DNA of 64,000 bases from an uncultured Gemmatimonadales bacterium (GCA_963793305.1 CAWBZV010000003.1:736001-800000), one strand, 5' to 3'; shown: positions 15,545-49,321, counted from the first letter of the stretch. A program made the numbers and translations. Notes: generated from the letters alone by a model not told the origin.

Positions 15545-16261
15545 TCAGTCGTCTCGACGCAGCTCGCCCAGTTCCTGTCTCAATGACTTGAGCGCCAGCC
15601 GGAGGTGCGTGTGGACCGTCCCGACTTCCACTTCCAGCAATTCAGCGATCGCTCGCTCCGGGAGCTCGCATTTGTAACGGAGTATCAGCGCCCGTCGACG
15701 ACGCTCGGGCAGAGCGGCGACGGCGAGCTCGACGGTTGCGAGCAGCTCCGTCTCGCGTTCCGACGCTCCCGCTATCGGATCTGGCTCGACCCCGGGACTC
15801 GCCGCCGGCGCTCCAGTCTGTTCCGCCGTCGTATGCGCGCGAGTGCGCGTCGCTCGCTGGCGGAGGATGTCATACGCGCGATGGCGAACAGCGGAGTAGA
15901 GGTAGAGCGAGGAGCTCGAGGTGATGTCGAGGGTCTCTCGATGACACCACAAAGTTGTGAACACGCTTTGCACAACGTCCTCGGCGTCTTCCCGACTATC
16001 GACCACAACCGAGGCGTAGTTGACGAGCGCGACGTAGAAGGCGGTGAAGATCGCCTTGAACCCGACGTTATCGCTTCGCCGGAGAACACCAGCGATATCC
16101 TCGACATCCACCGGCGGCGCTGGTGGACGACGCGGACTCCGCGGGAATAAGCGATACGGATCCGATCGCACGGGATACTCCCCGCTATCGGGAGACAAAA
16201 CGTCTATTGTGCAGCCAGCGGCGAAACTCGCTGGCGAAGGACGCGACAGTCTGGAAGCCAT
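15545..16261 (-). CDS. ECF sigma-70 factor
   Basis: DAEDVVQSVFTTLW, YLYSAVRHRAYD, ALPERRRRALIL, IAELLEVEVGTVHTHLRLALKSL. True start is probably downstream of 16261. Confidence 0.9.
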   Translation of the reverse strand: MASRLSRPSPASFAAGCTIDVLSPDSGEYPVRSDPYRLFPRSPRRPPAPPVDVEDIAGVLRRSDNVGFKAIFTAFYVALVNYASVVVDSREDAEDVVQSVFTTLWCHRETLDITSSSSLYLYSAVRHRAYDILRQRATRTRAHTTAEQTGAPAASPGVEPDPIAGASERETELLATVELAVAALPERRRRALILRYKCELPERAIAELLEVEVGTVHTHLRLALKSLRQELGELRRDD

Positions 16262-16495
16262 CGTGACGGCTCACCAGTGTATGCGTGACCGTTACGCGAT
16301 ACAAACGGTTCACGAAGAACAGAGAAAATGCACAGATGTGTTTCAGGGCGCAAGTAGCAGATCGGCCGTGTGCGTAAGCAGTGCAACACGCCGCTCGCTG
16401 TGTCACGGCGTTCACCCGACGTCCCGCCTTCTACGTCTTATTGGGCATCCGAGAAGACCCACGAGCACTCACGTCGTCCAGCCAATGGTACCGCC

Positions 16496-17273
16496 ATGAT
16501 CACCGGTATCTCCGATCTCGTCGGCTCGAGAATCCTCTGTATCGATCCAGACAAAGAGACCCGCAAGTTCGTCTGCGAGCAGCTCGGCAAGCTCGGGCTG
16601 TCAGTGCGACTCGCCGAGGATGGCCTTGAAGGCTTGCGGGCAGCGCTGTCGCTGCCGCGGCCGGACCTCATCATCATGGAGTTCGGGCTCCCGAGCTTAT
16701 CCGGGATCGAGGTCATCCAACGCCTGCGCACGCGCGGGAATTGGGTGCGGATCATCCTCATGACCGACAAACCCGAGAATGACGATGCGCATCTCCTCGC
16801 GATCGACAATGCCGTCATCGACATCATGGGGAAGCCGTTCACGGACGACTCTCTCCGCGTGCGCACCATCGCGGCGCTGAGGCGTGCGGCAGTCAAGAAA
16901 TCCGTGTTCCGGTACGCCGACCTGTCGCTCGATCTCGCGACCCGGTACTGCGTGCGGGGGACGCGGCCCATGCAGCTCACGCCGTCGGAGACTGAGCTCC
17001 TCCACTACTTCATCGAGAGGCCGGAGGTGCCGCTGTCGTCGGAGCGGCTCCGCGAGGAGGTGTGGGGAGAGGAGCGCCAGTCATCGAGCGAGCATGCGCT
17101 GCTTCCGCGCATCTCCGAGACTCCGGCAGAAGCTCCACGGGCCGGGGGAGTCGGTCATCCTGCATACGGTGCCGAGTATGGGGTACATGCTGGCGATACC
17201 GTGTGCTGATGATCCGACGCTCGCAGGGCTGGGCGATTTGCCTTGGCCGGGGTCGTTTGATCAGTTCACTTGA
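16496..17273 (+). CDS. OmpR-family response regulator with atypical receiver (frameshift near 17090-17115)
   Basis: RILCIDPD, PDLIIMEFGLPSLSGIEV, MGKPF, LTPSETELL. The C-terminus RLRQKLHGPGESVILHTVPSMGY is in the adjacent frame ending at 17273. Confidence 0.8.
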
Positions 17274-17797
17274 TCCCAGGCGAACAGATCGCCCTGTTGA
17301 CCGAGTGGTGCCCACGCCATCGCTTCGGCGTTGGCGGCGCGGCCGGATTCAATACCGACGATGTTGTGGTGCTCGACGATAAAAACCTTCCCTTGCCGCA
17401 CGAGGGTTCGAGCAGGTGGTCGTGGGGTCGCGGATTACCCAGCGAATCAGCGTCGATACGACCGATGCGGCGCGTACGCGCCTTGCTCTTTTTGCGTGGG
17501 CTGGGTCACGCCACAAATGTACTCGATCGCTCATCAGGCGACACGTCGGCTGTGACGGACGGCAAACGGGCCGTCGGGGGGATTACGAGCGTCACATCGG
17601 CAAGAGCAAGCCAGCATTTCGTATGCATTGCAACAGGTGCTTGCAAGGTCGAGAGTACTCACAAGGGTGCCAGTACGCGCGAGATAGTGCCCGATTCAGC
17701 GATCTGCGGTCAATACTCGATCACGCCATACTCAGGAGATTGGCGCTCTTCGACTAGGGGATGTAGCGCTTCACACTCACCCTACTCGGAGGTATCG

Positions 17798-17932
17798 ATG
17801 TTCTCTCGCGCGAAGGCCCTCGCCGTGATCGCTCTCGCCGGGGCCATTCTCGAATCCTGTACGTCCGCGAACGCGCCGGCAACTCACGGTGACTGCGGCG
17901 GTGGCGTAACCACGGGCACTGGTCCCTGCTGA
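17798..17932 (+). CDS. 44-aa putative small lipoprotein or secreted peptide
   Basis: GGAGG RBS at 17788; MFSRAKALAVIALAGAILES-CTSANAPATHGDCGGGVTTGTGPC. Confidence 0.55.
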   Translation: MFSRAKALAVIALAGAILESCTSANAPATHGDCGGGVTTGTGPC

Positions 17933-17939
17933 GCGACTG

Positions 17940-19097: not shown

Positions 19098-22000
19098 ATG
19101 AGAGCCCACCCTGTGATTGCAGTGTTAACCCTGCAGCTTTCCGACCATTCGCCAAGGCTCGTCATGTTACGTATGTGTCCCACGGCAACCCAGGTCATGT
19201 CTGGACTGCTCGTCATCCTGACTCAAATTACGGCTGCAGCTCAGGAGACAGTACAGATCACCCAGTTGGTCGATCGCGGGCCGATGTTCTACTCGTCGTC
19301 GCACGGGGAGCGCACGGCGGCGGTCGACGCGCGGACTATTGCGACATTGCAGCAGAGCATCTCCTTGGACCTCGATTCAGCGCCATTGCCACTGGCCATC
19401 GCTGCTATTTCACGCGCGGCACATGTGGAGATCAGTTTTCGCAACGAGGATGTACCGGTAAGTCACCGGGTCACACTTTCTGCTAAGAAGATCACGGTAG
19501 CCGCCGCTTTAACGGTTGCACTTTATGATCTGAATCTCGATGTCCGGATATCACAGAGTGGGAGCCTAAGCCTTTCTTCGCATAGCGCACCATCGGCCTC
19601 ACCGCGCAACGGCGAGCAACCCGCCGGAGAGATCGTTGGGGTAGTGACCGACGCCGATACGCATATTCCACTTATTGGTGCCGTCATCCACGTGGAAGGA
19701 ATCAATCGAACCGCGATCACCGGTACCGATGGAAAGTACAGCTTGTCGGGTGTTGCCTCCGGTGTCGCCACAATTGTAGCTCGCCGTCTCGGATATCTAC
19801 CTCTTAAGCACACGGTGACCATCAACGGCGAATCGAGCACGAACGTCGACTTCGCCTTGCACATCTCGCCTGTATCTCTCGACGAAGTTGTCACAACGGT
19901 CACCGGCGACGAAGAGAAGCGAAGTCTTGGGAATAGCATCGGTACTCTCAGGGTGGACTCACTTGTTGACGTCGCACCTGTTACTGATCTGGGCAGCATA
20001 GTTAATGCGCGTGTGCCAGGAGTGCAGGTGTTCTTCAATGGCGGGCTCACCGGGGCGTCGCCCCAGATAAATATTCGCGGTCAGAACAGTATGCAATTGT
20101 CAAATCAACCGTTGCTTTACGTAGATGGCGTACGAGTTAGCAACACTTCTGCTGGTCGCGCGGCCGATAGCACATCCGTGGGGGCGACATCGGGACGCCT
20201 AAACGACATTCTGCCCGAAGACATCCAGTCAATCGAAGTTGTCCGCGGCCCATCTGCCGCCACTCTGTATGGAACCGACGCGGCGAACGGTGTGATCTTG
20301 ATCACCACAAAGCACGGTGCGCCGGGTAGTCGCAAATGGACGCTATTCGGCGAGCAGGGAATGATGTCGGTGGATCGCGACCGGTTCCCCTACTCGTATG
20401 ATGCCTGGGGTACTACCACAGACGGCACAAATACCCCCACGGCCTGTGGGTTGCAGGCGCTTGCTACGAAGGCATGCACCGTAGACAGCATCACTCGATT
20501 CAGCCCTTTGAGGGATGCGGCTACGACTCCAATTGGCACAGGGCAGCACGCCAGTTACGGATTGCAGGTCGCGGGTGGAAATGGGGCGCTTCGTTACTTC
20601 GCCTCAGGTGGGTTGACCTCAGAACTTGGAGCGCTGAAACTGCCCGGACCCGACTTGAGCCTGTTGGCGGCCGAGCGAGGTGCGGTAGGCGTTGGTGATG
20701 CCGAGCGCAGGCCTAACGCACTCCAAAAATATAACGTTCGCGACAACCTTACAGCCGATCTTGGTGCTCGGGCTGACCTGACGTTGTCGACTTCACTGCT
20801 CTCCCAAGACTCTCGGATTCCTTCGTCGCCAGTCGCAGAGGGCACCCTTGGCCCGGGATACCGTGACGCATCCGATGGATGGGCGTTTGGCAATCGACCA
20901 GCTTACATATTCGCACAGCATAACGATGAGAGCATTACGCACATCACAGGCAGCGCGACCACTAACTGGCATACAACGGATTGGCTGACTAATCACGCAA
21001 TTGCAGGGATTGATTTTGACAACGAGTACTACAGCGGCCTGCTGCGAGCAGGGGATAGCCCGCTTGACCCCACTGGTTTTAGAACTAATACAAAAACTGC
21101 CACCACGCTCTATTCGGTCGATCTAGGATCGTCAGCATCTTATAACGTACCGCTATTGACCAGCGCTCAAACGTCAGTTGGGGTTCAGTACAATCGACAA
21201 CTGATCTTAATCAACACACTGTCCGCGAACAGCCTGATTCCTGGATGCACCACGTTTAGCTGTGGGTCACAGCCCGGGGGGCAAGAGGGTACTCAAGAAT
21301 CAGTCGTAGCCGGTGCGTATGCTGAGCAGCAACTCCGTTTGCGACCGACCCTATATTTGACCGGCGCTCTTCGAGCTGATGGCGGCAGCACCTTTGGTCG
21401 CGATTTCAAGGTCGCGCTTTATCCAAAGGCAAGTGCCTCGTGGGTAGTATCCGACGAGGCGATCTGGCCTCGCTCGCCGGTAATCAGCCAGCTTCGTTTC
21501 CGTGGGGCATTTGGAGAATCTGGTGTCGAGCCAAGTACAATTGCTGCATTGGCAACCGAAAGAATCTTTCCGGCAATAGTGGATGGACAGCCAGCCAGCG
21601 CCGCATTGGACCAGTCACCTGGCAACGGAAATCTTCAACCGGAACGGGATCGAGAATGGGAAGGGGGACTCGATGCGGATCTCTTTGGGGCGCGCGTGAC
21701 CCTATCCGCTACTTACTACGACAAAACAAGCTTTGATGACATCGTCAGTGTGACTTTGCCCGCATCTGAGGGCGGAAGTAGCGAAACCGTCAACGCAGGA
21801 TCCGTACGCAATTGGGGATATGAAGGACAGATCAGTATTCGCGCGTTGGCAAGCAAATGGCTTACGTGGGATCTAACGAGCAACGGATCAATCAACCACA
21901 ATCAGCTCGTGAAGCTCGCGCCACAGTTCGCGCCGATTATTAGCCCCGGCGGAGGTTCGAGTATAGTGGCCGGTTACCCACTCTTCTCCGCATTTGATTA

Positions 22001-22580
22001 CCCGATCCTCGGTTATCAAGATAAGAATGGGGATGGCATTATCGAACCAAATGAGCTCACGGTTGGCTCTACTCCGGTCTTCCGGGGGCAAATGTATCCG
22101 AAAGTGCAACTTACGTTGGGGTCGACGTTGGGCCTTTTCAACTCTCGATTCCATGCCAACATCCAATTTGACTATCGCGGTGGGTTCAGGCTTTTCAATC
22201 AAGTCCTAGCACTTCAATGCGCTGTTGGTGTGTGCCAAGCGCTTGAGACTCGTGGCGCATCGCTGGCTGATCAAGCACGCGCATTGGCTTACACAACGAA
22301 AGGTACAACTTGGGGGTACTATGAGGACGCTTCGTTCACTCGTCTGCGGGAAGTGGGTTTGTCTTATGATATGCCCCAGAGGGTCGCCCGTGTCATGCGA
22401 ATGCGAAGCGCGGTAATAACTGTCGCCGCGCGCAACTTGGCACTGTGGACGCGCTACTCCGGCCCGGATCCGGAAGTGGCAAGCAGTCCCGGCCAAAATA
22501 CAAACGTAGGTGCTTACTCTGACCTCGGCGGGTTACCGCCAAGCCAATATTATGTCATTCGCTTGTCGCTTGGGCTGTAA
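19098..22580 (+). CDS. SusC/RagA-family TonB-dependent transporter with N-terminal STN signalling domain
   Basis: STN-like [18 protein letters not shown]; carboxypeptidase-regulatory-like domain; plug motifs INIRG, [55 protein letters not shown]. Start is probably 19164-19197. Confidence 0.95.
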   Translation: [1160 protein letters not shown]

Positions 22581-22581
22581 C

Positions 22582-23964
22582 ATGTGGCCCATAATGGTAT
22601 TCAATCGCGAAGCGCCGGGGTTCGCCAAGATCTTTCGCTGCCTCATCGCGGTGCTTCCGCTGTTCACTGCGTGTAGCGACTTGACGCGTGTTACCGCTCC
22701 CGATGTGGTGCAGGAGGGGTCGCTTAACAATTCCTCGGGTGCCACTCTGCTCCGTAATGGGGCCATTACTAGCTTCAATGGCGCCTATGCTGAACAAGCG
22801 CTGCTCAGCGGAATGCTCTCGGATGAGTTTAGTGACAGATCGGGGGGGCAGTTCAAGTCTGACCAGCGCATTGTTCCGCCGATTGACCCAACCTCCTCGG
22901 TCGACCGATATCCGTATTCGGACTTAAGTGCCGCGCGAATAGCCGCCCTGCACGCGATCTCGACTACTGAGAAGTATGACACGACTGAGGGCTCGCAGGT
23001 GGGCGCGATGTTCGCCTATCTCGCGGCAACTGAGCTGTTCTTTGTTGAGGATCTCTGTTCGGGTGTTCCGGTTGGGTTATTCAGCAACGGTGCGGCTGCA
23101 CCCGGCCCCGTACTGGACCGCCAGGGCCTCATTGTCTTGGCGCTTCAACACCTAGATTCGGCGGCTGCACACGGCACGGCGAGCGATAGCGTAGAGAACT
23201 GGGCACGAGTGCTGCGTGCAAGGGCGCTTCTTGACAGCAACAATGTGCAAGGCGCGACCATTACCGCTGCGCAAGTACCCGATGGGTTTGAGTACGTGGC
23301 TCAATTCGGTGGTTCCGCGGTGCCATATAATATCGTTGCGTACTGGGTATACTCTGCATTGTACGCCTCAGTGTCAGATAATGAAGGCGGAAACGGACTC
23401 GATTTCGTGAGCGCTCACGATCCGCGAGTGCCGACGCAGGACCTAGGGGCCGGGGCAGGCGGCGGAGAGGTATTCGGTTTCGCGTTGTACACGACTCTCG
23501 GTTCGCCCATCGTTGTGGCCGGATCCGTCGAGGCCAGGTTGATTCAGGCGGAAGCGTTATTGCGAGCCGGACAGACGAGCCTATGGATACAAATACTGAA
23601 CAACCTTCGAACGAATTCGACTTTTAGCACCCACCCGGATTCGGCAAACCCGTCGCAGACCGACACGGTCTGGAATGCAGGGACTGGAGGTGTATCCGGT
23701 TTGAGCCCAGTAGTGATTCCGGCATCAGCTGCTGCCCAAGTCGATCTAATGTTCCGTGAGCGTGCGTTTTGGCTCTTTGGGACGGGTCATCGCCAAGGCG
23801 ACTTGCGACGACTCGTTCGTCAGTACGGGCGATCTGTTGGGATCGTCTTTCCCTCCGGGACCTATCAGGGCGGACCCGCGCAATATGGGACGGACGTAAC
23901 CTTCGTGCCGTACTTCGAGGAAAACAACCCCGCCTATCACGGGTGTGAGAATAGAAATCCTTGA
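22582..23964 (+). CDS. SusD/RagB-family outer-membrane lipoprotein
   Basis: Lipobox FTAC; EARLIQAEA, LNNLR, RERAFWLFGTGHRQGDLRR; directly follows the susC-like gene. Confidence 0.9.
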   Translation: MWPIMVFNREAPGFAKIFRCLIAVLPLFTACSDLTRVTAPDVVQEGSLNNSSGATLLRNGAITSFNGAYAEQALLSGMLSDEFSDRSGGQFKSDQRIVPPIDPTSSVDRYPYSDLSAARIAALHAISTTEKYDTTEGSQVGAMFAYLAATELFFVEDLCSGVPVGLFSNGAAAPGPVLDRQGLIVLALQHLDSAAAHGTASDSVENWARVLRARALLDSNNVQGATITAAQVPDGFEYVAQFGGSAVPYNIVAYWVYSALYASVSDNEGGNGLDFVSAHDPRVPTQDLGAGAGGGEVFGFALYTTLGSPIVVAGSVEARLIQAEALLRAGQTSLWIQILNNLRTNSTFSTHPDSANPSQTDTVWNAGTGGVSGLSPVVIPASAAAQVDLMFRERAFWLFGTGHRQGDLRRLVRQYGRSVGIVFPSGTYQGGPAQYGTDVTFVPYFEENNPAYHGCENRNP

Positions 23965-24019
23965 CCCGAGCCATCATCCTGCCGCTGCAGGTTTGAGTGC
24001 GCGTCTCAACAATCGCTTA

Positions 24020-37848: not shown

Positions 37849-38040
37849 TCAGGGGTGTGCCGCGAGCAATGTCGGCGTAGCGGTCGTCACTGGCGTGGTG
37901 GAGTGGGCCACCGCCTTGTGCGCGTGGTGACGCGTCGAGCGAAATACGGAGCACAACGGCTCGAACGCCAGCGCTGCCGTGAGTCCAGCAGCGATCAAAC
38001 CCGCACTTGCGAGCACGACAATCCGATGACGCAGTGACAT
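37849..38040 (-). CDS. Small exported or membrane protein
   Basis: GGAG RBS; hydrophobic N-terminus; His/Thr-rich tail; stops 10 bp before the ABC gene start. Confidence 0.5.
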   Translation of the reverse strand: MSLRHRIVVLASAGLIAAGLTAALAFEPLCSVFRSTRHHAHKAVAHSTTPVTTATPTLLAAHP

Positions 38041-39452: not shown

Positions 39453-39746
39453 ATGCGGCAACATCCACCTAGTATGACACCACAGGCATCGCGGCAGCCT
39501 ATGCAGCAAGCTGTGGATCGGCCAGAGGCTCCGGCCCGCATTACGTTCGCCACGAACGTCCGGCGAGCGAGAATGCAACTCGGTATCTCCCAGGAGAAAC
39601 TCGCCGAGCTCTCTGGGCTCCACCGGACGTTCGTTTCCTCCGTCGAGAGAGGCGAACGCAATATCTCGGTCGACAATATGGAACGCGTGGCTTCCGCACT
39701 TCGCGTGAAGCTCGCGATCCTGCTCACGCCGCCACTCGGCGACTGA
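39453..39746 (+). CDS. XRE-family HTH regulator
   Basis: FATNVRRARMQLGISQEKLAELSGLHRTFVSSVERGERNISVDNM. Confidence 0.92.
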   Translation: MRQHPPSMTPQASRQPMQQAVDRPEAPARITFATNVRRARMQLGISQEKLAELSGLHRTFVSSVERGERNISVDNMERVASALRVKLAILLTPPLGD

Positions 39747-39804: not shown

Positions 39805-39812
39805 GTGGGCCA

Positions 39813-40088
39813 TCAGTCGCCGCGGCTGCGACGATGCGAGTGGCCTTTCGTCGGCAACGGATCCAGTTCCTGCAACGCGGCGCCGAACTCGCGCCAGTTG
39901 ATCCCGAGACCCACCAGCAGCTGGCGGATCTTCCGAAATCCCACGTTGCGCTCGGCCCGTTCGACCGCGCCCACGAACCCGCGGTCCAAACGGGCTTCGT
40001 ACGCGAACCCCTCCTGCGTGTAGCCGGCCGAGCGGCGATACGTGCGAATTACCTCGGCCAATGGCTGCAACTCTTCATGTCGTTCCAC
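39813..40088 (-). CDS. XRE-family HTH regulator
   Basis: LAEVIRTYRRSAGYTQEGFAYEARLDRGFVGAVERAERNV; GTG start inferred. Confidence 0.85.
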   Translation of the reverse strand: MERHEELQPLAEVIRTYRRSAGYTQEGFAYEARLDRGFVGAVERAERNVGFRKIRQLLVGLGINWREFGAALQELDPLPTKGHSHRRSRGD

Positions 40089-40216
40089 AGCGGAAGCATA
40101 TCTATGCGACCATGCACCGATACAAGGGTGAGAATACATCCTCGTACACTGCGATGATGTGTATTCGCATACGGTGTATCGGCAACCGGTGAGTATGACT
40201 CTGTTAGTGATCGCAC

Positions 40217-41344
40217 TCAGTACGGGTGCTCGAATACCAAGTCCCGCGACACCATCACCAGAAACAACGTCCCGCCGCGCACCGTGATCACCGGTGTCAT
40301 ACGCGCGTCGTTGCGCAACACCTCGAGACTCTGCTCCGTCACCTGCTGACCGAGCGAGCCCGCGAGTACCTGGCCCGGGGAAGCCACGCCGTACGGGACA
40401 CTCGATGGCGGCTGACTCAGTTGCGCGCCGGCGCCGACCAACGACAGCAAGCCCGCGTCGAGATACGCGCGACCCAGGTGCGAGTTCACCGCGCCCCGTA
40501 GTCCCGACGTGCCACCCGCGTCCGCGGACTCGAGGTCCGGCAACGAGAGCGTGCGGCCGCTTGGGAATATCAGGCGCGTCCACACTACCGACAGCGCATC
40601 TTCTCCTTGCGCGACCTTCGAGTCGTAGTGGCCGACTATGCGCGAGCCACGGGGGATCAATACCCAGCGCAGCGACGGCGTGTCGTACACATCGCGCGTG
40701 ACCTGGGCGATAACGAGGCCCGGAAGCGTCGAGTGGATCTCGGTCAGCAATGACGCTGGGATCATCGCGCCGGACTCCAGCACGTAAGGCGATGGCGCTA
40801 CGACCGCGGTCGTGTCCCTGTGCACCACGAGCGCGCTCGTCCACGCGCGAGGAGGCGCGGCTGGTGCCATCAGCGCGACGCGCGCTGGTGGGGTAGGCGA
40901 AGGTAATGGTGAAATCGGCGGCGCGAGAGAGTCTTGCGGACACGACGGCTGCTGCGGATACGACAGCTGCGGCGGATACGACGTGCGCTGCGGATATGAC
41001 GTGCGCTGCGGATATGACGTGCGCTGCGGATATGACGTGCGCTGCGGATACGACGTGCGCTGCGGATACGACGCACGCTGCGGATACGACGCGCGCTGCG
41101 GATATGACGGACGCTGCGGACACGACGGACGCTGCGGATACGACGGGGGCTGCGGATACGACGGACGCTGCGGGACTACGCGTGGCGCGACCGAGGTGGG
41201 CTCGGGCGATGGAGCACGCGCGTGCAATGTCGTCGACCAGAGTACGACCAGCACCGTCACGAATATCAGCACGCCGACCACCACCAGCGCAACGTGGTTG
41301 AGCCGCATCGGACTCGGCGGCCGCGGTCGAAAACTCGTCGACAT
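40217..41344 (-). CDS. trbI: T4SS VirB10-like protein
   Basis: N-terminal TM; SPYVLESGAMIPASLLTEIHSTLPG, AQVTRDVYD, LIPRGS, WTRLIFP, MVSRDLVF. Confidence 0.92.
   Translation of the reverse strand: MSTSFRPRPPSPMRLNHVALVVVGVLIFVTVLVVLWSTTLHARAPSPEPTSVAPRVVPQRPSYPQPPSYPQRPSCPQRPSYPQRASYPQRASYPQRTSYPQRTSYPQRTSYPQRTSYPQRTSYPPQLSYPQQPSCPQDSLAPPISPLPSPTPPARVALMAPAAPPRAWTSALVVHRDTTAVVAPSPYVLESGAMIPASLLTEIHSTLPGLVIAQVTRDVYDTPSLRWVLIPRGSRIVGHYDSKVAQGEDALSVVWTRLIFPSGRTLSLPDLESADAGGTSGLRGAVNSHLGRAYLDAGLLSLVGAGAQLSQPPSSVPYGVASPGQVLAGSLGQQVTEQSLEVLRNDARMTPVITVRGGTLFLVMVSRDLVFEHPY
40940..41173 (-). repeat. 13 x 18-bp coding tandem repeat (PQRxSY) in the trbI linker
   Basis: GCTGCGGATA(C/T)GACG(T/C/G)(G/A)C units on the + strand. 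Confidence 0.92.
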
Positions 41345-41353
41345 CGCGTTGCG

Positions 41354-42085
41354 TTACTTGGGGACGAATAACCGCGTGTTGACGATCTCGATCTGACGAC
41401 CCTTGTCGCGCAAGATCGCGCGCGAGAATAGCCGGTCCGTGATGTACGTGTCGTTCGAGACCAAGTACGTCAGCAGCGACGTCGACTTGTCGTCCAACTC
41501 GAGCAGCAAGATCGGTAGGTCCGCGTGACGCGCTGAATCCGACAACCGCACATACGCGTGCGTGCCGTCGTCATACACAGCGACCGGCGACCACGCGACG
41601 TGGCGGTCGGACCGCCAGCGATACGTGAACGACAACGACTCCGGGTGGAACGCGTCCACGGGAATGGCCGCGAGGAGTGAAGCACCCGAATACGAGAAAC
41701 GCACGCGGCGCGTGTACCGCACCGGCCGCCGACCGCACACCGGCGACTCGAGCGCGACATCGTACACCCGGCGATCCGTCGACACCACCAAGTTGGTTGC
41801 GATATCGCAACCCGTCGGCTTGATGATCACCACCGGCGTGCGCCCGACCGTCAGCGTCTGGTCCACGAGCCAACGCTCCGTGTCGCCGAGCGCCGTCGCC
41901 AACACCCGTTCACCCGCTTCGAGCTCGATCACGCAGGCGCGAAGCGGTGCGCACGTGACCACCGGCTGCGAGTGCCCGTACGGATACACGATCGCGTCAC
42001 CTGTTTCGACTACAGACGTATCCGCCTGCTGCGCCAACAACCGCCCCACAATCATTAGATGTGCAACCAGCGGCGACATCCGCAT
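41354..42085 (-). CDS. trbG: T4SS VirB9-like protein
   Basis: VYPYGHSQPVVTCAPLRACVIELEAGE, GDTERW, IKP, TNLVVSTDRRVY, VYDDGTHAY. Confidence 0.9.
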   Translation of the reverse strand: MRMSPLVAHLMIVGRLLAQQADTSVVETGDAIVYPYGHSQPVVTCAPLRACVIELEAGERVLATALGDTERWLVDQTLTVGRTPVVIIKPTGCDIATNLVVSTDRRVYDVALESPVCGRRPVRYTRRVRFSYSGASLLAAIPVDAFHPESLSFTYRWRSDRHVAWSPVAVYDDGTHAYVRLSDSARHADLPILLLELDDKSTSLLTYLVSNDTYITDRLFSRAILRDKGRQIEIVNTRLFVPK

Positions 42086-42733
42086 CAGGCCGGCGCCCCC
42101 ACCCGCGTCCACGTGATCGACGTGATGTACACACCCAACGGATTCCGCTCGATCGACTCCGTCGTCTCCGGCGGTGAAAGCCGAACACCCACATACGCTT
42201 CCCACGAATGCACCTCCGGCGTCCTCGCCGTCCACCGGATACTCCGTCTCCACCCACTGAACGCGCCACCCCGGCCCCGATGGCAACACCGCCGTCACCT
42301 CGGCCGTCCTCGTCATCAACCGCCCCAACGCATGCGGGTTGTTCCGCGGATCCGTGAAGTACGCGTTCAAGAACGCCGCCCCTCCCTGATCCACAAACCC
42401 ATACGCCCGCGCCATCACCTCGCCCTCGGCCACATCCGACGGCACAATCGTCCGCACCTCGCGCACGAACTCGGCGATCTGCGATACCACGAGCCGCGTG
42501 TCCGTGTGCCGCAACGGCTCGACCGGCCCCAACGCCCGCGCGAGACCGAGCTTGTCGACCTCCACGACGTACGGCGTCACCCGCGCCGTCAACGACAGCC
42601 GCACAAACCCGAGCGTCTCCGTCAATAAAACGGCGAGCAGTCCGAACGCGACCAGCTGCCAGTTGCGCTTCCCCCGAGCCAAGTTCGCGTACACTCCCTC
42701 GAACTCGGCCCGCGCCGCGAGCCATGTACTCAT
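42085..42733 (-). CDS. trbF: T4SS VirB8-like protein (frameshift near 42220)
   Basis: RNWQLVAF, TPYVVEVDKLG, WRVQWVE; C-terminus RNPLGVYITSITW in the adjacent frame. Confidence 0.88.
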
Positions 42734-43570
42734 AGGCCCTTGAGCGCCGCCGCCAGTGAGAAATCCTGTCGACGCGCGATCCACGACGAGCCGACCTCCG
42801 GCACCCGCGTCGACAGCATCGCGAAGATCAACGCGCCGCCCACCACCTGCCCGAGCGGCGAGCCTGGACCGAACAGCTGGTCCGCGCGAATGAGATCGAT
42901 CCACCCGCGCGAGAGCTCGCTCCCCAAACTCACCATCAAATACAACAGAAAAATCTTCACCCCGACATGCACCGCGTAACTCAAGAACCCCTCGGCGATC
43001 CCCGCCGTCCCCCGAAACGCCGCAAACCCCAGAAACACCACACCGCCACTCAGCACGACGTAGCTCTCGACGAGCACCAGCACGAGCTGCGCGGCCACCG
43101 TCACGTAGGCGAACAACACGAGACACGCCGAGAGCCCAGCGACGATCGCCATCGCGGGGTTCGAGAGCACGCCGACGACGTTCGAGCGACGACAAGAGCT
43201 TGCCGGAGAGCGCGACGCCGATGTCGATCACGTCCGAGGGGTTGACCGTGCCCGGTGCGCCGATCGCGCGCTCGCCCGCGGCCGCGAACCCCGCCACGAA
43301 TGGCGGCATCCAGAACGCGAACGACGTGATCAGCGACAACAGCACCGCCAACAGCATGAACTTGAGCACGAACCGCGCGGCGACTTCGTCCAACGCGTTC
43401 CGCCGAAACCCGTACACCAGCGCCGAGATCGCGACCTCGACCCCCGCCAGAATCGCGAACGTGCGCTGCGCGACCGGAACGAGACGCGCAAGCCAGACGT
43501 GCGAGGCCGCGGCGTAGGCGCTCCCGATCCCGTCCAGGATCTGGCCGCCGGCGTCAGTGGGGAGCTGCAT
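42730..43570 (-). CDS. trbL: T4SS VirB6-like protein (frameshift near 43185)
   Basis: Polytopic membrane protein; NPSDVIDIG, VLVESY, FLGFAAFRGT, VGVKIF. Confidence 0.82.
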
Positions 43571-44180
43571 ACGATACCAGTGGTCGATGCGCCGGCGCCG
43601 TCGCCATCGCCGACCAAAGCGCTCGCGCATTCTCATCCGACTCGGCCTGCGCATTCACCTGATGCGCATAGTACACCGCCTCGGCGCTCGTCTGCGCCGC
43701 CACGGCTTGTCGCAAGAGCGTGAGCTCCTGGGCCGTGTACACGTGGATCGTGTTCGCGAGCTCCAGCGACTCCTCGTGACCCTGCGAGGCCGCGACCTGT
43801 GGTTGGAACCGGTCGAGTTGCGCGGCCCCCGGCGCAACGGTCGATGACGACGCGCGGGCGCCGTCGAGAACGCCCGCCAACGTCGACAACGTCGAGCGCG
43901 AACGAGCACGATCGTCCGCCGGGAAATCGCGTGTGGCGACGGCACCCGGGAACACCGATGAGAACCGGCGACTCAAATCTGTCCCCGGCGACTGGGACGC
44001 GGTGACCGTGGATACCACCGACGATATGTCCCGCCACTCCGGAGACCTAAGCTTCCGCAACGCTTGCTCCGCCAACTTGATCTGCTCAACGGCCTTCACG
44101 ACATGCAGAACGTTCTCGGCGTAGTTCGTGGGGTCGAATACGGCGAGTTGAGCGAGTACCAGACTAAGACACAGGTGCAT
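43554..44180 (-). CDS. trbJ: TrbJ/VirB5-like protein
   Basis: AVFDPTNYAENVL motif after a signal peptide; ASQG...ELAN. Confidence 0.8.
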   Translation of the reverse strand: MHLCLSLVLAQLAVFDPTNYAENVLHVVKAVEQIKLAEQALRKLRSPEWRDISSVVSTVTASQSPGTDLSRRFSSVFPGAVATRDFPADDRARSRSTLSTLAGVLDGARASSSTVAPGAAQLDRFQPQVAASQGHEESLELANTIHVYTAQELTLLRQAVAAQTSAEAVYYAHQVNAQAESDENARALWSAMATAPAHRPLVSYAAPH

Positions 44181-46540
44181 CGGAACCTCCCAGCCAATGG
44201 TCGAGCCACGCGGCTCCGTGTTCGTGCATCGCTCGAGTTGCCCCGGCGCGAACGGCATCGCCAGAAGCCAGCAATGCGCGCGCGACGGGCCCAAGCGAGA
44301 GCTCGAACAAACGGCTGCCACGGGGCGAAGTGAAGTAGTAGTCACGCTTGGGCGCGGCGCGGGCGATCAACGAGATCTCGCGCGCCGTGAGGCCAAGGCC
44401 GGCGTAGATCGCGGCCGTGTCCGGTGAGGCGGCGTCGGCGTTCGGGAGATAGATCCGCGTGGGACACGACTCCCAGATGATCGGCGCCCCCGACAGCTGC
44501 GTCACGTTGTGGGCGACGAGAACGACGGCCGCGTTCTGTTTTCGGAGCGTCAGCAGCCACTGCTTGATCCGCGCGGCGAACGCCGAGCGCATGAGCGGTG
44601 CCCAGACTTCTTCGATCACGATCAGCGCCGGGCGACCGTCGAGGCGGCGCTCGACCTGGTGGAACAACGCCAGCAACGTCGGCACGAGCACGCGGTCGTC
44701 CATGTCCAGCAGCGATCGGAGCTCGAACACCGTGTAGTGCGACTCGCCACTCTCCGCGTCCGCTACGCCATCCAACACGCCGGCATACGCGCCGCCCTTG
44801 ATGTACGACACGAGCGACGCCACCACCGACGCGTCCTGCACCTGCCGCGCGAGCTCGGCCAACGTCCGATGCTCCGGCTCGCACCCGGCCAACAATGTCA
44901 GCGCGCGCTCGATCGCGTTCCGCGACCGCCGGTCTGACTCGCCGACCAACGTCTCGACCCACTCGGCGCACCACGCACGCTCCGCCGTATCATCGACATG
45001 ACGCAACGGTTGCAACACCGCCGCTACCCCGCCCGCCGACAGGTCCACGTGCCGCCCACCGAGCGCGTGGCACAACACCCACGCCGAATACCCGACATCG
45101 AACAGAAATACCCGCGCGTCCGGATACCGGAGAAACTGCGCCGTGAGCAGCCCGACCAACGTCGACTTCCCCGCACCCGTCTGCCCGACAATGAGCGCGT
45201 GCCCGACATCGGACACGTGCAGGTTGACCCGAAACGGAGTCGAGCCATCGGTCGCCGCCCACAACAACGGCGGGCTCTCCGGCGGATAATACGGACACGG
45301 ATTATGCGCGAGCCCCGGCCACGTGCTCGTCACCGGCACGAGATCCGCGATCGCCGCCCCACTCACCACCGGCCGCCGCACGTTCGGCGCGCCGTGCCCG
45401 GGCAACGTGCCCAGAAACGCGTCGACCGCGTTCACCGTCTCGATCCGCGCCCCAAACCCGGCATCACCAAACGCACGCACGATCGACGTGGCCACCGCAT
45501 CGGCGACCTGAGGATCGTCCTCGATCACCACCGCGATCGCGTTGTACACGCAAAACCGCGCGCGCCCGCTGGCGTTCTCCGTCGCCGCCGCGGCCGCATC
45601 GTGCGCCATCCGCGTGGCGTCGTTGTCCAACCACATGCTCTCCCGCGCCGACTCACGACTCGCCATCTCCTGCACCCACTCGGCCGCTCCCTTCCGCTTC
45701 TGAAACCACCGCAACTGATGCCGCCGAATCAATCGCGACGCGGTAGCCTGCGACAGCGGCAGAATCCGGTGCGACCACCGATACGCCGCCGGCAAACTCG
45801 CGATCGGCTCCAACACGCCGGGCGACGAAAGCTCTGGCCACCCCATCACCGCCACACACCGAATCGCCCGCCCGCCGATCGTGGGCTCGAACCCGCCGAC
45901 GAGCTCCTGCGTCGCAAGCGCGAGGTTCAAGTACACACCACCCGGCGGCGCGCGAAGCGGAGACGCCGAGCCGGTGAGACACCCATGCAGATGCGTCACG
46001 AGCGCGTCCGCGCCCAACGGCTCGAGCACGAGACGGTGCCCAAGCCGGTCGGACAACGCGCGCAACGACCGGCGATACGCGCCGAGCACCCCGTTCCAAT
46101 CCACCCGAGCTCCACGACGTCCCGAGAGCAACAACGCCCTCGCCCGCGAATCCGCCTCCGACGGCGGGAGCCACGAGACGCTCAACACATACGACGTTCT
46201 CATATCGCCGCCCCGCACTCGCGTACGCCGCCCGACGCTCCTCATCGATCAGCGCCGCCGCCCGACACGGAAACTCCCCCTGCGGATACGGCGCGGCCGG
46301 CCGCCGCACCGCGTCCAGGTGCCAACACCAGTCGTCCCCATACGCCAACAGCGCGTCGTTGAACGTCCGCGACAACGCCTCCCGCTCGGCGTCACTCGCC
46401 GCCGTCACATCCGGCCCGTGATAGCTGAACGCCGAGAGCAGCGCGCCGTCTTTCTGCAAGATCACGCCGTCGTCCACCATGAACGCCCAGTTCAGGAGAT
46501 CGGCGACGCCTTGGGGTCTCGAACGATGCTCAGCGAGCAT
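44164..46540 (-). CDS. trbE: T4SS VirB4 ATPase (frameshift near 46220)
   Basis: ADLLNWA..DGVILQKDG, STPFRVNLHVSDVGH, GQTGAGKST, IEEVW, WLLTLRKQNA, ESCPTRIYLPN. Confidence 0.93.
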
Positions 46541-46796
46541 ACCCGTGCGGCGGATAGTAGTCCGCGAACCGAAGCGACCGGATGTACACCGCCGTAATCG
46601 CCGGATCGACCGCGGTCGCGCGCGCCATCGCCCAATGCACGCCACCGAGGTAGACGGCCGCAAGCGCGATCGTCGTCACGTGGAGCCCGACGACGATGAG
46701 CAGCCCAAGCGTTGCCGCGCCCTCGGTGATCGCCACCGCGGGCTCGACCCCGGCGAACAAAACGCTACGATGAAGCGAAGCGTGAATCACAGCCAT
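46530..46796 (-). CDS. trbD: T4SS VirB3-like protein
   Basis: IHASLHRSVLFAGVE, two TM segments, DP...VYIRSL. Confidence 0.85.
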   Translation of the reverse strand: MAVIHASLHRSVLFAGVEPAVAITEGAATLGLLIVVGLHVTTIALAAVYLGGVHWAMARATAVDPAITAVYIRSLRFADYYPPHGYAR

Positions 46797-46834
46797 GCAG
46801 AGTTCACAGTAGTTCGCGATGCGCCGACCCCGCG

Positions 46835-47137
46835 CTACACCGTCGCCCCCGCAAACTGCAGCAACCCCACGATCTGCACCGCCCCAAACATGAGCGCAAT
46901 CGCGAAGATGGCCTGCCCGATGCGCCGCGCCCCTTCCTCGTGCCGCGTAAACCCCCACACGACACCGCCGATCACGAGCATGAGCCCCGCCATGACGCGC
47001 GCCGTCGGCCCCGTGAGGTTCGCCAGCAGCGTCGAGAACGGCGCGTTCCACGGCATGTCCGTGCCGCCCGTACCCGCGTGCGCGAGCCGCGGCCACAGCG
47101 ACAACCACAGCGCGATCAGGGAAAGTCGAGCTCGCAC
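46835..47137 (-). CDS. trbC: T4SS pilin VirB2-like
   Basis: AHAGTGGTDMPWNAPFSTLLANLTGPTA plus hydrophobic hairpin. Confidence 0.9.
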   Translation of the reverse strand: MRARLSLIALWLSLWPRLAHAGTGGTDMPWNAPFSTLLANLTGPTARVMAGLMLVIGGVVWGFTRHEEGARRIGQAIFAIALMFGAVQIVGLLQFAGATV

Positions 47138-48075
47138 TGGTCCTCCACCGGATCGATGATGAACCGCCCCGCCTCATCCAGCCCGACCACTCGGACGAGG
47201 CTCTTCACTCGCCGCCCCGGCCCCATCATCACGATCCAGTCCACCGCCTCCACGATGAGCGCGGCCTGCGATGGCACGTTCGCCCGCTGCGCAAGCCGAT
47301 CGAGCCGCGCCAGCGCCCCCGCGGGCGTCATCGCGTGCAGCGTCGCGACGCCGCCCGGATGCCCGGTCGCCCACGCGTCGAGGAGATCGAGCGCGGCCTC
47401 GTCGCGCACCTCGCCGACGATGATCCGGTCCGGACTCGCGCGGAGCGTCGCCTTGACCAGCTGCGCGAGCGTCCCGCCAACCGGCGTCCTGAGCGCCAGA
47501 TGATCGTCCGCCACGCACTGGAGCTCGGCCGTGTCCTCCAAGATCACGATGCGCTCGGACGGGAAGATCGCCGTGATCTCGTGGATGACGGCGTTGGCGA
47601 ACGTCGTCTTCCCCGAGTTCGTGCTGCCGCACACGAGAATGCTCTCGCGACTCCTGATCGCGGACCCGAGTCGCTGGCGATGCGCCGGCCACAGCGCCAG
47701 GCGCGCCACGTAGTCGTCGAGCCCGTACACGATCGCCGGTGGCTTCCGAATCGTGAACGCGGGCTCACGCGTCACCGGCGGCACGAACCCTTGCAGCCGC
47801 GCCCGCCGGAAGAACTCGTCCGGCAGCGTCGTCTGCAGGAACGGCGACTCGGACTTGAGCAACACGCCCTCACGCGCGGCGGCCGCGTTCAAGAACATCT
47901 CGACCTGCTCACTCTCGAGCGTGCACGGGAACGACGTGCGCCCGGCCGAACGCGTCTCGAGCCGCACTTGATGGTCGTGCGGGTTGACGTACACCTCGGT
48001 CACGTCCGGGTCCGTCAATGCGCCCGCTATCACCGGCCCGAGGTGCCGGAGCAGCGGTTCAGCTTCGTCGATCAC
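47116..48075 (-). CDS. trbB: P-type conjugative transfer ATPase
   Basis: DPDVTEVYVNP, FTIRK, GSTNSGKTT, LEDTAEL, LRASPDRIIVGEVR, WATGHPGG. Confidence 0.95.
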   Translation of the reverse strand: MIDEAEPLLRHLGPVIAGALTDPDVTEVYVNPHDHQVRLETRSAGRTSFPCTLESEQVEMFLNAAAAREGVLLKSESPFLQTTLPDEFFRRARLQGFVPPVTREPAFTIRKPPAIVYGLDDYVARLALWPAHRQRLGSAIRSRESILVCGSTNSGKTTFANAVIHEITAIFPSERIVILEDTAELQCVADDHLALRTPVGGTLAQLVKATLRASPDRIIVGEVRDEAALDLLDAWATGHPGGVATLHAMTPAGALARLDRLAQRANVPSQAALIVEAVDWIVMMGPGRRVKSLVRVVGLDEAGRFIIDPVEDQCELDFP

Positions 48076-48130
48076 TCTAGCCTCCTGTCGAATGTCCCTA
48101 CTTCATACGACAGGGCTCCCCTCGAATTAA

Positions 48131-48749
48131 TCAACGGACCTGAACCGTATCCCCCGCATGCAGCAACCGGCCGGGCGCGACCAGCACGGTCCCTTCTTCG
48201 ACCGACACTCGTACCGTTGGCTCCCAAGGGTTCGCGCGCACCGTGAATATCGTGCCGACCGCGGTAATCGTCGCGTCGCCCGCGTGCACTTGGAAGGGAT
48301 GCGCGGCATCGGGCCGCACCAGGAACCGCGCCTCGCCTTCGAGATCGACCACGCGTGGTGGACGGAAGAACGACACGCGATAGCGCACACGCGCGAGCGG
48401 TTCCAGCACCGCGCGCGAGCCATCCGGCAGCCGAACCGTCGCTGGGCCGAGGTAGCGTTCATCGACATGCGCCGCGATCACCGGCGCGACACTCAGGTAC
48501 GTCACTATGCCGAACACGAGGAGCGCCGCTACGCCAACGATCACTTCCAGTCGACGCAGCGTCCGACGCACCGTGAGACGCGCCGTGAGCTCCCCCCATC
48601 CCTGATCGACGTTCGAGCGCCGGTGCCGGTGGCAGCGCGCTCTCGGCCAACGCCAACAATCGCGCGGCACGCTCGCGCGCGGGATCGCCTTCGATCTCGC
48701 CCGCGAGCACCTCGAGGTACTCGGCGTCGTCGCGCGGCAGCTCGGTCAT
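48131..48749 (-). CDS. FecR-family anti-sigma (short; frameshift near 48615)
   Basis: MTELPRDD start overlaps the sigma stop; TM; VRLPDGSRAVL, VDLEGEARFLV, AVGTIFTV, VSVEEGTV. Lacks the usual C-terminal domain. Confidence 0.82.
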
Positions 48750-49321
48750 CGCGAGTCCAAAACCTTCGCCAGCGTGTCCGCCCACTCGGTATCGGCGAGA
48801 CCGCGCGCCAGCAGGTGGAGGGCGCGTGCGTGATGGCGGTTCACGGTGATCACCGAGAGTCCGAGTGCCGTGGCAATGGCCCGCGTGTCCAGGCCATCCA
48901 CGTGGTACAGGAGATAGACTTGGCGGCATCGCTTCGGCATCGCCTCGATAATCGACGCGACCCGTTCCTCGAGCTCGCGAACCACGGGACGGTGCGGCCC
49001 GGAGTTGTCCACCGTTGGCTCCCATTCAGACAGTGGGGGGTCGATCGCTCGCCGGCGCTTGACCCCCAGTTCCGGGGCGCGATTGTTGACGGCGCCGAAC
49101 AGGTAACTCGAGAGGCTATCGCGCACCGACCAGCGCTCGCGCGAGCGCCAGAGGGCCAAGAAAACGTCCTGGACCAGCTCCTTGGCGTCCTCGATCGCCA
49201 GCCCGCCAATCCGGCGGGCGAACTTGACCAGCAACGGCCAATACGCCCGGTACAGCGTCTCGAACGCCTGCCGGTCGCCCGCGCGGACCGCGGCGATCAA
49301 GGCCTCTTCTTCGCGTTGCAT
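48746..49321 (-). CDS. ECF sigma-70 factor (FecI-like)
   Basis: GDRQAFETLYRAY, AKELVQDVFLALW, MPKRCRQVYLL, IATALGLSVITV. Confidence 0.92.
   Translation of the reverse strand: MQREEEALIAAVRAGDRQAFETLYRAYWPLLVKFARRIGGLAIEDAKELVQDVFLALWRSRERWSVRDSLSSYLFGAVNNRAPELGVKRRRAIDPPLSEWEPTVDNSGPHRPVVRELEERVASIIEAMPKRCRQVYLLYHVDGLDTRAIATALGLSVITVNRHHARALHLLARGLADTEWADTLAKVLDSR

Follow-up and report, generated by a model that had tools for sequence, protein, structure and literature searches.

We analysed a 64,000-nt stretch of DNA (the window) from the genome of an uncultured Gemmatimonadales bacterium, G000, together with five other genomes of the same Gemmatimonadaceae genus, G001–G005. The initial annotation had reported lasso-peptide synthesis genes, an ABC exporter, SusC, a SusD-like protein, an S9 peptidase, an ECF/fecR pair and a trb operon, and gene coordinates and profile matches confirm that all of these are present. 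Beyond that annotation, the window also contains three lasso precursors, a Hanks-type Ser/Thr kinase, an IS21 element, a second ECF gene, two response regulators and an XRE pair. No tRNA was found within the window. The features, in order along the sequence, are as follows.

15545..16261, minus strand: ECF_A, an ECF sigma factor without an adjacent anti-sigma factor, kept in G003 and G005
16496..17209, plus strand: RR_A, an OmpR-family response regulator with a frameshift near its C-terminus, probably an assembly error
19098..22580, plus strand: SusC/RagA TonB-dependent receptor (TIGR04056, 370.8 bits, cut-off 368.25)
About 19332-19592, plus strand: divergent N-terminal STN-like domain of SusC
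22510..23964, plus strand: SusD-like lipoprotein, assigned from a weak match (PF07980, E 0.004) and synteny
23945..26578, plus strand: S9 prolyl-oligopeptidase-family peptidase, candidate lasso isopeptidase
26596..27537, minus strand: Hanks-type Ser/Thr kinase, candidate tailoring enzyme for Ser/Thr-rich tails
27732..28025, plus strand: lasso B1 (RRE/PqqD), lasso-model match below the clade cut-off
28022..28423, plus strand: lasso B2 leader peptidase (NF033537, 73.8 bits, cut-off 33)
28420..30309, plus strand: lasso cyclase C, lasso-model match below the clade cut-off
30306..30470, plus strand: lasso precursor A1, 54 aa
30715..30882, plus strand: lasso precursor A2, 55 aa
31074..31247, plus strand: lasso precursor A3, 57 aa
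32298..34210, plus strand: IS21 istA-istB, between the lasso and ABC genes, not found at this site in G003 or G005
34377..35593, minus strand: two overlapping ORFs, probably one frameshifted gene, with no match in the syntenic loci
36017..37839 (about), minus strand: MsbA-like ABC exporter, frameshifted in G000
37849..38040, minus strand: small conserved membrane ORF ahead of the ABC gene
38203..39039, minus strand: RR_B, an OmpR-like response regulator
39483..39746, plus strand: XRE1, an XRE-family regulator with 92-98% identity in relatives
39843..40082, minus strand: XRE2, a second XRE-family regulator, not found in G003
40217..48075, minus strand: P-type mating-pair operon trbB, C, D, E, J, L, F, G, I (trbB at 48075)
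46530-46796, minus strand: trbD
46835-47104, minus strand: trbC
48109..48134, minus strand: promoter-like motif TTGATT-N16-TGTC before trbB, whose TGA is also the fecR stop codon
48131..48749, minus strand: short FecR anti-sigma factor, split by a frameshift in G000 and ~205 aa in relatives
48746..49321, minus strand: ECF_B, an ECF sigma factor whose stop overlaps the fecR start
49335..50639, plus strand: serine hydrolase with a beta-lactamase fold, probably a lipoprotein, its start codon uncertain
49417..49443, plus strand: motif TTGATC-N17-TGTC, pointing from ECF_B toward the serine hydrolase gene
50661..52148, plus strand: PAS-PAS histidine kinase, encoded after the hydrolase, which may pair with RR_A or RR_B

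The gene order ECF–fecR–trbB-I–XRE–RR–ABC–lasso–S9–SusD–SusC is conserved in three of the six genomes of the genus (G000, G003 and G005), and these three loci represent one common ancestor rather than independent events. The initial annotation had allowed that the blocks might be unrelated neighbours, and had named a lack of co-occurrence of lasso and trb blocks elsewhere as grounds for rejecting its circuit; the same order in G003 and G005 shows that they do co-occur and indicates that the lasso, SusCD and trb blocks are not chance neighbours. As G000 carries 11-12 FecR matches, ~24 ECF loci, 33 TonB-receptor loci and three lasso clusters, co-location within this single genome would come cheaply, but conserved synteny exceeds chance. 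The blocks do differ in GC, as had been noted, with values of 0.563 for the lasso/SusCD cassette and 0.671 for the trb block. Synteny, purifying selection and conserved upstream blocks also mark the PAS-PAS histidine kinase gene, ECF_A, the ABC gene, the XRE pair and both response regulators, the one upstream of XRE1 being strongly conserved and containing an inverted repeat. On the opposite side, T2SS, sigma-54 activator and Rhs genes continue in G000, G001 and G003. The G000 assembly has frameshifts in fecR, trbE, trbL, trbF, RR_A and the ABC gene. Near-identical contigs of close relatives lack at least three of the single-base insertions, and similar insertions disrupt the ilv/leu housekeeping genes, so that the frameshifts, whose sequence context recurs, are probably sequencing errors.

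The operon shares the order trbBCDEJLFGI with Tn4371-like ICEs and Ti-plasmid trb operons, systems of known gene order and TraI/TraR control, and related Gemmatimonadota elements likewise bear an integrase, relaxase, coupling protein and traF alongside trb. In contrast with both, the trbB-I locus of G000 has no relaxase, coupling protein or integrase and is vertically inherited, and its ECF sigma gene stands where Ti plasmids have a quorum-sensing synthase gene. G000 has a single trbI, two coupling proteins and two relaxases, with neither coupling protein nor relaxase near the window; virD4–traF lies ~700 kb from trbB-I and occupies one and the same locus in G000, G001, G003, G004 and G005. 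In G002, trbE-I-virD4-traF is still one string at the virD4-traF locus, with integrase-ECF-FecR-trbB on another contig. Both halves are syntenic across the genus, vertically inherited and under purifying selection, with dN/dS values of 0.09-0.46 for the trb genes, virD4, traF, ECF_B and fecR and dS resembling that of five control genes; none of the trb genes is broken in G001, G003 or G005 (dN/dS 0.09-0.36), virD4 retains its Walker A motif and traF is retained. This pattern suggests that trbB-I is likely to be the mating-pair half of an ICE-derived T4SS, now chromosomal in two pieces. On balance we expect it to transfer DNA on behalf of elements that carry a relaxase and lie elsewhere in these genomes, with protein secretion as the less probable alternative. 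A search for the XVIPCD effector domains of the Xanthomonas-type bactericidal T4SS found them in none of the six genomes, but the control search found nothing either.

The fecR stop lies 55 bp ahead of the trbB start and the pair is co-oriented with the operon on the minus strand, exactly as had been annotated, and the proposed link from ECF to trb gains support from two sides. Of 22 Gemmatimonadota-type loci, 12 have an ECF gene in the 2.5 kb upstream of trbB, versus 2 of 62 others, using an ECF profile built from G000 proteins and with 14 of the 84 upstream stretches shorter than 1.5 kb. In addition, the motif TTGATY-N16/17-TGTC precedes trbB, the distant virD4 and the serine hydrolase gene. 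The strict form has 47 matches in G000, seven of them intergenic and upstream of a gene, and these three genes account for 3/7; the relaxed pattern is common, with 180 matches in G000 and 100-180 in five relatives. With a matrix trained without G000 and G004, the hydrolase ranked first and virD4 second among 5,769 genes, and the G000 trbB site was weak under the stricter matrix (rank 305 of 5,769). The motif also precedes trbB in 10 of 11 metagenome loci and stands divergent from ECF_B in five of six mobile copies. It was, though, first noticed at the loci under study, and related genomes do not count as independent. The conservation of the trbB site is partly explained by its TGA doubling as the fecR stop. 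In G002, whose ECF falls outside the ECF_B clade, no motif turned up ahead of trbB or of the ECF gene. We regard the motif as a likely promoter, likely read by ECF_B; since three ECFs on mobile elements that do not belong to the supported ECF_B clade are preceded by it as well, it could instead be read by another regulator, ECF_A for example.

The short FecR comprises N-terminal helices, one membrane helix and a juxtamembrane beta domain matching PupR (6ovk_R) and BDI_1681. The earlier observation that it lacks a C-terminal domain holds, FecR_C being absent in a domain profile search, and this truncation holds throughout its clade (52 best of 84 homologues). In PupR both subdomains are needed for STN binding (PMC7186176), so that wiring from an STN domain to this FecR is unsupported; the short FecR would be unable to take a TonB-receptor signal by the known route and would have to sense another cue. 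Like FecIRA and PupIR–PupB, the locus has an ECF gene overlapping fecR, a PupR-like juxtamembrane domain and an STN-like domain on a nearby TonB receptor. It differs from them in the loss of the C-terminal STN subdomain throughout the short-FecR clade, in having trbB rather than a receptor gene next after fecR, and in a receptor 25 kb off, on the opposite strand and without the motif shared by the T4SS genes. In the Pseudomonas aeruginosa PUMA3 system (VreAIR), too, a FecIR-like pair sits just ahead of a secretion system, the Hxc T2SS, and activates it (PMC2729926); in G000 the target would be a P-type T4SS in two loci, the anti-sigma factor is truncated and the genes next to the pair include no VreA-like STN protein that we could see. 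Brucella BcrS/AbcS is likewise an ECF/anti-sigma pair linked with a T4SS, whose expression it influences, but there the direct target described is a neighbouring operon for oxidative stress and the T4SS serves virulence (PMC8315932), whereas in G000 the sigma gene adjoins the trb operon directly and the two T4SS loci carry a dedicated motif. By our model the short FecR probably holds ECF_B, which once free would likely switch on both T4SS pieces, and release may come from another envelope cue, possibly tied to the serine hydrolase.

On the other side of the ABC gene, lasso precursors are recognized by a YxxP leader, Thr at -2, Gly1 and Asp/Glu at 7-9. A1 has the YxxP leader, Thr at -2, Gly1, Asp8 and a Ser/Thr-rich tail, and all three precursor ORFs, with Gly1 and Asp8, conform to the rule; their cores are ~32-35 residues long with Ser/Thr-rich tails. 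Close relatives of the Hanks-type kinase occur in 5 of 301 genomes, with lasso genes alongside in four of the five. With astexin, sphingopyxin and rubrinodin clusters the locus shares B1, B2, C, precursors, an S9-family peptidase and a TonB receptor, and with the rubrinodin cluster an ABC exporter (PMC9266682). It differs from astexin-type clusters in its long cores, in a SusC/SusD pair in place of a plain receptor, in the lack of a GntR regulator (none among 75 scanned ORFs) and of a sigma/anti-sigma pair beside the receptor, and in its peptidase. That the S9 protein is an AtxE2-type isopeptidase is not upheld, as it falls far under the family cut-off (NF033523, 55.8 bits versus 400) and none of its seven PDB hits (E≤1e-5) is a lasso isopeptidase, although it may still have that function. 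The known lasso kinases PadeK and ThcoK have a His-Lys-Asp-Asp motif, in contrast with the Hanks-type enzyme found here. The block would form a separate module that makes, re-imports and degrades lasso peptides, with phosphorylation of their tails as a prediction.

The SusCD–S9–kinase–lasso cassette fills the slot in all three genomes where this is readable, which suggests some functional tie. Unlike the lasso genes, the ABC exporter is vertically inherited, and it is intact in G003 and G005 (83-90% identity to G000); protein identity within the cassette is only 29-49%, versus 83-89% for the ABC gene, and pairwise dS is saturated in 11 of 12 comparisons. Low GC and saturated dS suggest that the cassette has probably been exchanged between lineages within a fixed slot beside the exporter. 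As a single clade of the three cyclases is not rejected (p-AU 0.21), fast divergence in place is possible instead. The lasso and SusCD genes are a conserved and likely swappable neighbour of the split T4SS, and the locus as a whole is likely to hold a domesticated, ECF-controlled T4SS beside a hypervariable lasso cassette.

Does this block signal to the T4SS? The STN-like domain of SusC scores 18.9 bits with Pfam STN (cut-off 28.4), and its model (pLDDT 67) matches the signalling domains of PupB, FpvA and PupA with TM values of 0.57-0.60, none at E≤0.001; from these weak, consistent matches we judge the domain to be real but divergent. As a whole, the explanation we lean towards is a two-piece chromosomal T4SS run by ECF_B with a separate, exchangeable lasso module, the lasso-peptide/SusCD block probably being neither a trigger of the T4SS nor an input to ECF_B.

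It is rather improbable that the two are coupled indirectly, the cassette and T4SS belonging to one contact or competition programme via regulators other than STN–FecR. ECF_B might, for example, induce the PAS kinase, which lies downstream of a motif site, and this in turn control the exporter and lasso genes by way of RR_B or RR_A; alternatively SusC might signal via ECF_A or an orphan full-length FecR ~50 kb upstream (702 kb on contig C3), which has FecR_C, lies more than 6 kb from any receptor gene and has a conserved counterpart in G003. The syntenic regulators with their conserved upstream blocks, and the T2SS, sigma-54 activator and Rhs genes across from them, would suit such a programme, but the regions ahead of the three SusC genes yielded no common element, and the orphan FecR, with a C-terminal domain 82% identical between G000 and G003 where the STN domains are 29% identical, is a poor fit with a fixed partnership.

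Peptide pheromones do control conjugation in pCF10 and ICEBs1, where a secreted peptide alters transfer-gene expression via a cognate receptor, and pherotype loci have a hypervariable core between conserved flanks. We think it unlikely, however, that the cassette is such a locus, with phosphorylated lasso peptides separating kin from non-kin and gating the two-locus T4SS through an STN-completed FecR or other regulators. The circuit first proposed, in which exported lasso peptides bind SusCD, the STN domain acts on the short FecR, ECF_B turns on trb and S9 resets the system, the cassettes being pherotypes, is very unlikely, also in the variant where the receptor STN domain substitutes for the subdomain missing from FecR. 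It draws on the conserved gene order, the cassette's hypervariability between conserved flanks, the STN-like domain in all three syntenic SusCs with no FecR between ECF_A and SusC in any of them, and lasso clusters that adjoin trbB in the unrelated locus L068 and lie 34 kb from a trbB remnant in G001 (contig C90). Against it, the subdomain bearing the interface is missing clade-wide from FecR; the STN domain is the least conserved part of SusC (26-30% identity versus 47-52%) while the FecR periplasmic domain is 59-79% identical among the same loci; neither lasso genes nor SusC accompany six mobile ECF_B/short-FecR copies within the flanking DNA examined; and the other two lasso clusters of G000 have their own ECF and a longer FecR next to the receptor. 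Moreover, the Fec sigma factor transcribes its receptor gene (PMC9249621), whereas the motif that ECF_B likely reads is absent upstream of SusC, B1, the kinase, the precursors and the ABC gene (scores of -3.5 to 2.0 versus 18.4-24.4). Least probable, and already largely refuted, is a decaying ICE with a dead trb relic and the lasso block as hitchhiking cargo, for which the G000 frameshifts, the missing relaxase, coupling protein and integrase, the IS21 and IS fragments and the commonness of lasso clusters (28 of 41 genomes) might speak, but the frameshifts also strike housekeeping genes and are in at least three cases absent from near-identical contigs, and the intact, selected trb genes, the virD4 Walker A motif and traF are kept.

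Should a lasso-peptide pheromone after all control gene transfer here, it would do so in a Gram-negative bacterium, and lasso peptides that are not antibiotics would gain a natural function. What isopeptidase-type lasso peptides do in nature is described as still open (PMC9266682), and the fixed slot, with its exchangeable alleles, is well suited to addressing that question; the long-tailed precursors with a Hanks-type kinase are a candidate new tailoring route. Among the open-access papers listed in our searches, none appeared to treat trb genes under ECF/FecR control or SusCD in combination with lasso peptides. The locus offers a predicted three-promoter regulon (trbB, virD4 and the hydrolase) with a defined motif, and a conserved FecR clade predicted to be unable to use the textbook receptor contact. 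For the Gemmatimonadota, an abundant soil phylum in which gene transfer and its control appear little described, it would represent an ICE turned into a chromosomal two-locus T4SS.

All of the genes named in the initial annotation (SusC, lasso, ABC exporter, S9 peptidase, FecI/FecR and trb) were found in the window, which additionally contains three lasso precursors, a Ser/Thr kinase, IS21, a second sigma factor without an anti-sigma (ECF_A), two response regulators (RR_A and RR_B), two XRE genes, and a serine hydrolase and PAS kinase divergent from ECF_B, the sigma factor paired with a short FecR directly upstream of trbB. As the source genome G000 holds 11–12 FecR matches, approximately 24 ECF loci, 33 TonB-receptor loci and three lasso clusters, the case hinged on comparison with relatives. 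The closest trbB matches are Gemmatimonadaceae or Gemmatimonadales sequences; a match was present in all five other genomes of the genus (this tally, that of lasso clusters across 41 genomes and the FecR and kinase searches of 301 genomes include the unpublished genome G012, on which nothing else depends) and, at E≤1e-60, in only six of 401 genomes sampled across the phylum, all of the family to which the genus belongs.

In two of these relatives, G003 (where the locus lies on a single contig) and G005, the order RR_A/ECF_A...SusC–SusD–S9–[kinase, lasso]–ABC–RR_B–XRE–trbI to trbB–fecR–ECF_B–hydrolase–kinase is kept, with only the lasso and kinase genes varying in orientation. The segment from ECF_B through RR_B is present in G001, in which orthologues of ECF_A, ABC, SusC and lasso were unmatched, but its contig stops inside RR_B, and this was not counted as absence. 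G004 shows the trb part alone, on a short contig, and the arrangement in G002 differs. The full order was thus found in three of the six genomes, all descended from one ancestor. The initial observation is largely right and the lasso and trb genes stay linked; the synteny rules out chance adjacency of the blocks. Three sequencing runs (X1, X2 and X4) cover both flanks and hardly the cassette at 18.4–35.7 kb; no contig spans the gap, and they were not taken as evidence. No Rfam family was matched and no tRNA was present in the window. XRE1 is better conserved than any other gene of the locus, and upstream of it lies a strongly conserved non-coding block (39400–39482) with the inverted repeat GCCGCAT-N9-ATGCGGC, likely the XRE1 operator.

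Positions 1–15002, together with G000:C3:716001–736000 (L003), form a defence island inserted in the conserved locus. It includes brxL with BREX-like genes upstream, and encodes a C5 methyltransferase, an HNH nuclease, a HerA-like ATPase and two AAA proteins, one sigma-54-like and the other McrB-like; type I R-M-like genes occupy this position in G005. Positions 54857–63891 and G000:C3:799888–806574 carry a compact T2SS cluster and, after it, genes for a sigma-54 activator and an Rhs protein, an order also found in G001 and G003. A second T2SS–Rhs block adjoins an ICE on contig C9 of G001, and the T2SS is possibly dedicated to Rhs proteins.

Alignment of upstream DNA revealed a motif, TTGATY-N16/17-TGTC, shared by trbB and the distant virD4; a third copy, upstream of ECF_B, lies on the other strand and is directed at the hydrolase. 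There are 47 strict matches in G000, in which the relaxed pattern is frequent, and the trbB, virD4 and hydrolase sites are three of the seven that are intergenic and upstream of a gene; the box before trbB shares bases with the stop codon of fecR. With a matrix trained on relatives these sites were the top three intergenic ones, and with training that omitted the close relative G004 the hydrolase and virD4 ranked first and second, and trbB 305th, of 5,769 genes. The motif was also found upstream of trbB in 10 of 11 metagenome loci, two of them with extra DNA between motif and fecR (two metagenome motif loci are near-identical to loci of the genomes compared), and upstream of two mobile-element ECF genes left out of the training set. 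The matrix scan gave no motif upstream of SusC, B1, the kinase, the precursors or the ABC gene, and no sigma-70 promoter or terminator was found at 47900–49700. We infer the identity of the sigma factor reading the motif, which would be ECF_B. At 14 of 84 loci the 2.5 kb upstream of trbB contain an ECF gene, comprising 12 of 22 Gemmatimonadota-type loci, whereas only two of 62 others have one, several of these loci sharing ancestry. The ECF_B clade is supported (99/95) in a tree containing one mis-framed row, on a long branch; its joining with ICE ECFs is unsupported.

G000 encodes one trbI, two coupling proteins and two relaxases, the coupling proteins and relaxases being on other contigs or ~700 kb off, and no integrase was matched near the window; an intact ICE was rejected because the locus is without relaxase, coupling protein and integrase. 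A coupling protein and traF occupy one conserved locus in G000, G001, G003, G004 and G005, with Walker A of the coupling protein intact and dN/dS of 0.11–0.24. The same locus in G002 holds trbE to trbI, virD4 and traF as a single string, suggesting that an ICE was first fixed in the chromosome and then split. G003 has a separate element with a relaxase and a partial trb set. Assembly error probably accounts for the G000 frameshifts: insertions of one base are seen repeatedly, amid similar sequence, in trbE, trbL and fecR as well as in ilv/leu genes, and those at 42225, 43181 and 46197 are missing from the contigs of close relatives. A search for XVIPCD effectors gave no match, and neither did its control. 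In trbI, at 40900–41150, the 6-residue repeat SYPQRx of the periplasmic linker is expanded beyond its length in relatives. Elsewhere in G000, a mobilisable element (L050, C2:868001–888000) has an integrase, ECF, coupling protein and relaxase and no trb genes, with a near-match to the shared motif upstream of its ECF. Rhodothermota-type trbB loci (L081, L083 and L086–L089) have a Ser/Thr kinase upstream in place of an ECF, accompanied in most by traF.

The flanks and the lasso cassette have diverged to different extents. In comparisons of G000 (or G001 where G000 is frameshifted) with G005 or G003, dS was ~0.5–1.6 and dN/dS 0.06–0.46 for the trb genes, ECF_B, fecR, hydrolase, kinase, ABC, ECF_A and RR_A, similar to five control genes, with RR_B against G003 above the other flank genes at 0.68. 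Of the 12 dS values for SusC, SusD, S9, the Ser/Thr kinase, B2 and C, 11 were saturated, and the encoded proteins were 29–49% identical. The GC content of the cassette is 0.563, compared with 0.671 for the trb block. The precursors, with Ser/Thr-rich tails, are particular to each genome (three each in G000 and G005, two in G003), and the Ser/Thr kinase subfamily occurs in five of 301 family genomes, adjoining lasso genes in four. The simplest reading is that cassettes have been exchanged in a fixed slot; in the cyclase tree a single clade of the three trb-linked copies was neither shown nor rejected (p-AU 0.21). Upstream of SusC lie a small lipoprotein-like ORF (17798–17932), also present in G005, and then an IS21 fragment (17960–18300). 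Neither Pfam nor PADLOC gave a match to an ORF pair within the cassette (34377–35593), which is without an equivalent in both G003 and G005. The G005 cassette interior contains a DUF6065 gene and a Cys-rich unknown gene (L025:14561–15373 and L025:18208–19371), and two G005 precursors lie upstream of SusC, apart from B and C. The two further lasso clusters of G000, L002 (C3:504000–524000) and L001 (C5:646000–666000), have an ECF and FecR beside each receptor; L002 includes a SusC/SusD/S9 set 40–45% identical to that of the window, and genes with weak glycosyltransferase-9 matches.

The initial annotation was right that SusC has an STN-like domain, and had proposed that lasso peptides sensed by it switch on trb through FecR. 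PMC7186176 places the PupR interface on the linker and C-terminal subdomain, with receptor-domain binding needing both subdomains. In a search confined to 112–359 aa, FecR_C was missing from all of the best 52 of 84 FecR homologues (131–258 aa), and the aligned short FecRs stop at the same strand; with 52 homologues stopping at the same domain, we rejected truncation as a pseudogene or artefact. In the predicted model (pLDDT 85), ~120 columns match the 213-residue PupR periplasmic domain. Strong matches (>200 bits) were restricted to this genus among 301 family genomes, and the next relatives in a wider library were mostly full length. Identity across the three loci is 26–30% for the STN, 47–52% for the rest of SusC and 59–79% for the FecR periplasmic domain; no conserved element was found upstream of the three SusC genes. 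Two further copies of the ECF_B/short-FecR pair occur in G001, one of them ~55 kb from a lasso cluster equipped with a separate ECF and FecR, and at six of 17 short-FecR metagenome loci no trbB follows the pair; none of these six had a lasso or SusC gene within its 5–20 kb of sequence. Eight of 10 FecR loci in G000 adjoin a receptor, the others being the short FecR and a full-length orphan; this orphan, located ~50 kb upstream of SusC, would make a more conventional partner for it. We regard the direct circuit as unlikely, given the short FecR without FecR_C, the divergent STN and the lasso-free copies of the pair, and an indirect coupling of the lasso cassette and the T4SS as possible, at a low probability.

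Among the listings of literature on ECF, trb and conjugation, on SusCD and lasso peptides, and on Gemmatimonadota ICEs, we did not find this arrangement described. The nearest regulatory precedent is PUMA3, in which a FecIR-like pair activates the Hxc system next to it (PMC2729926). Transcription of the receptor gene by the sigma factor, known from the Fec system (PMC9249621), is not indicated here; in Brucella, BcrS/AbcS is reported to influence T4SS expression (PMC8315932). A cycle of synthesis, export, re-import and degradation is proposed in PMC9266682 for isopeptidase-type lasso clusters, from which the present cassette differs by SusCD and a Hanks-type kinase.

On balance we favour, by a modest degree, an ECF-controlled split T4SS lying beside a swappable lasso cassette. 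Most likely, an envelope cue would free ECF_B from its short, receptor-independent FecR, and the freed sigma factor would transcribe trbB–I, virD4–traF and the hydrolase–kinase genes, with the resulting T4SS moving DNA on behalf of relaxase modules located elsewhere in the genome. Variable peptides would be made by the lasso cassette, and may be exported, re-imported and degraded by it.
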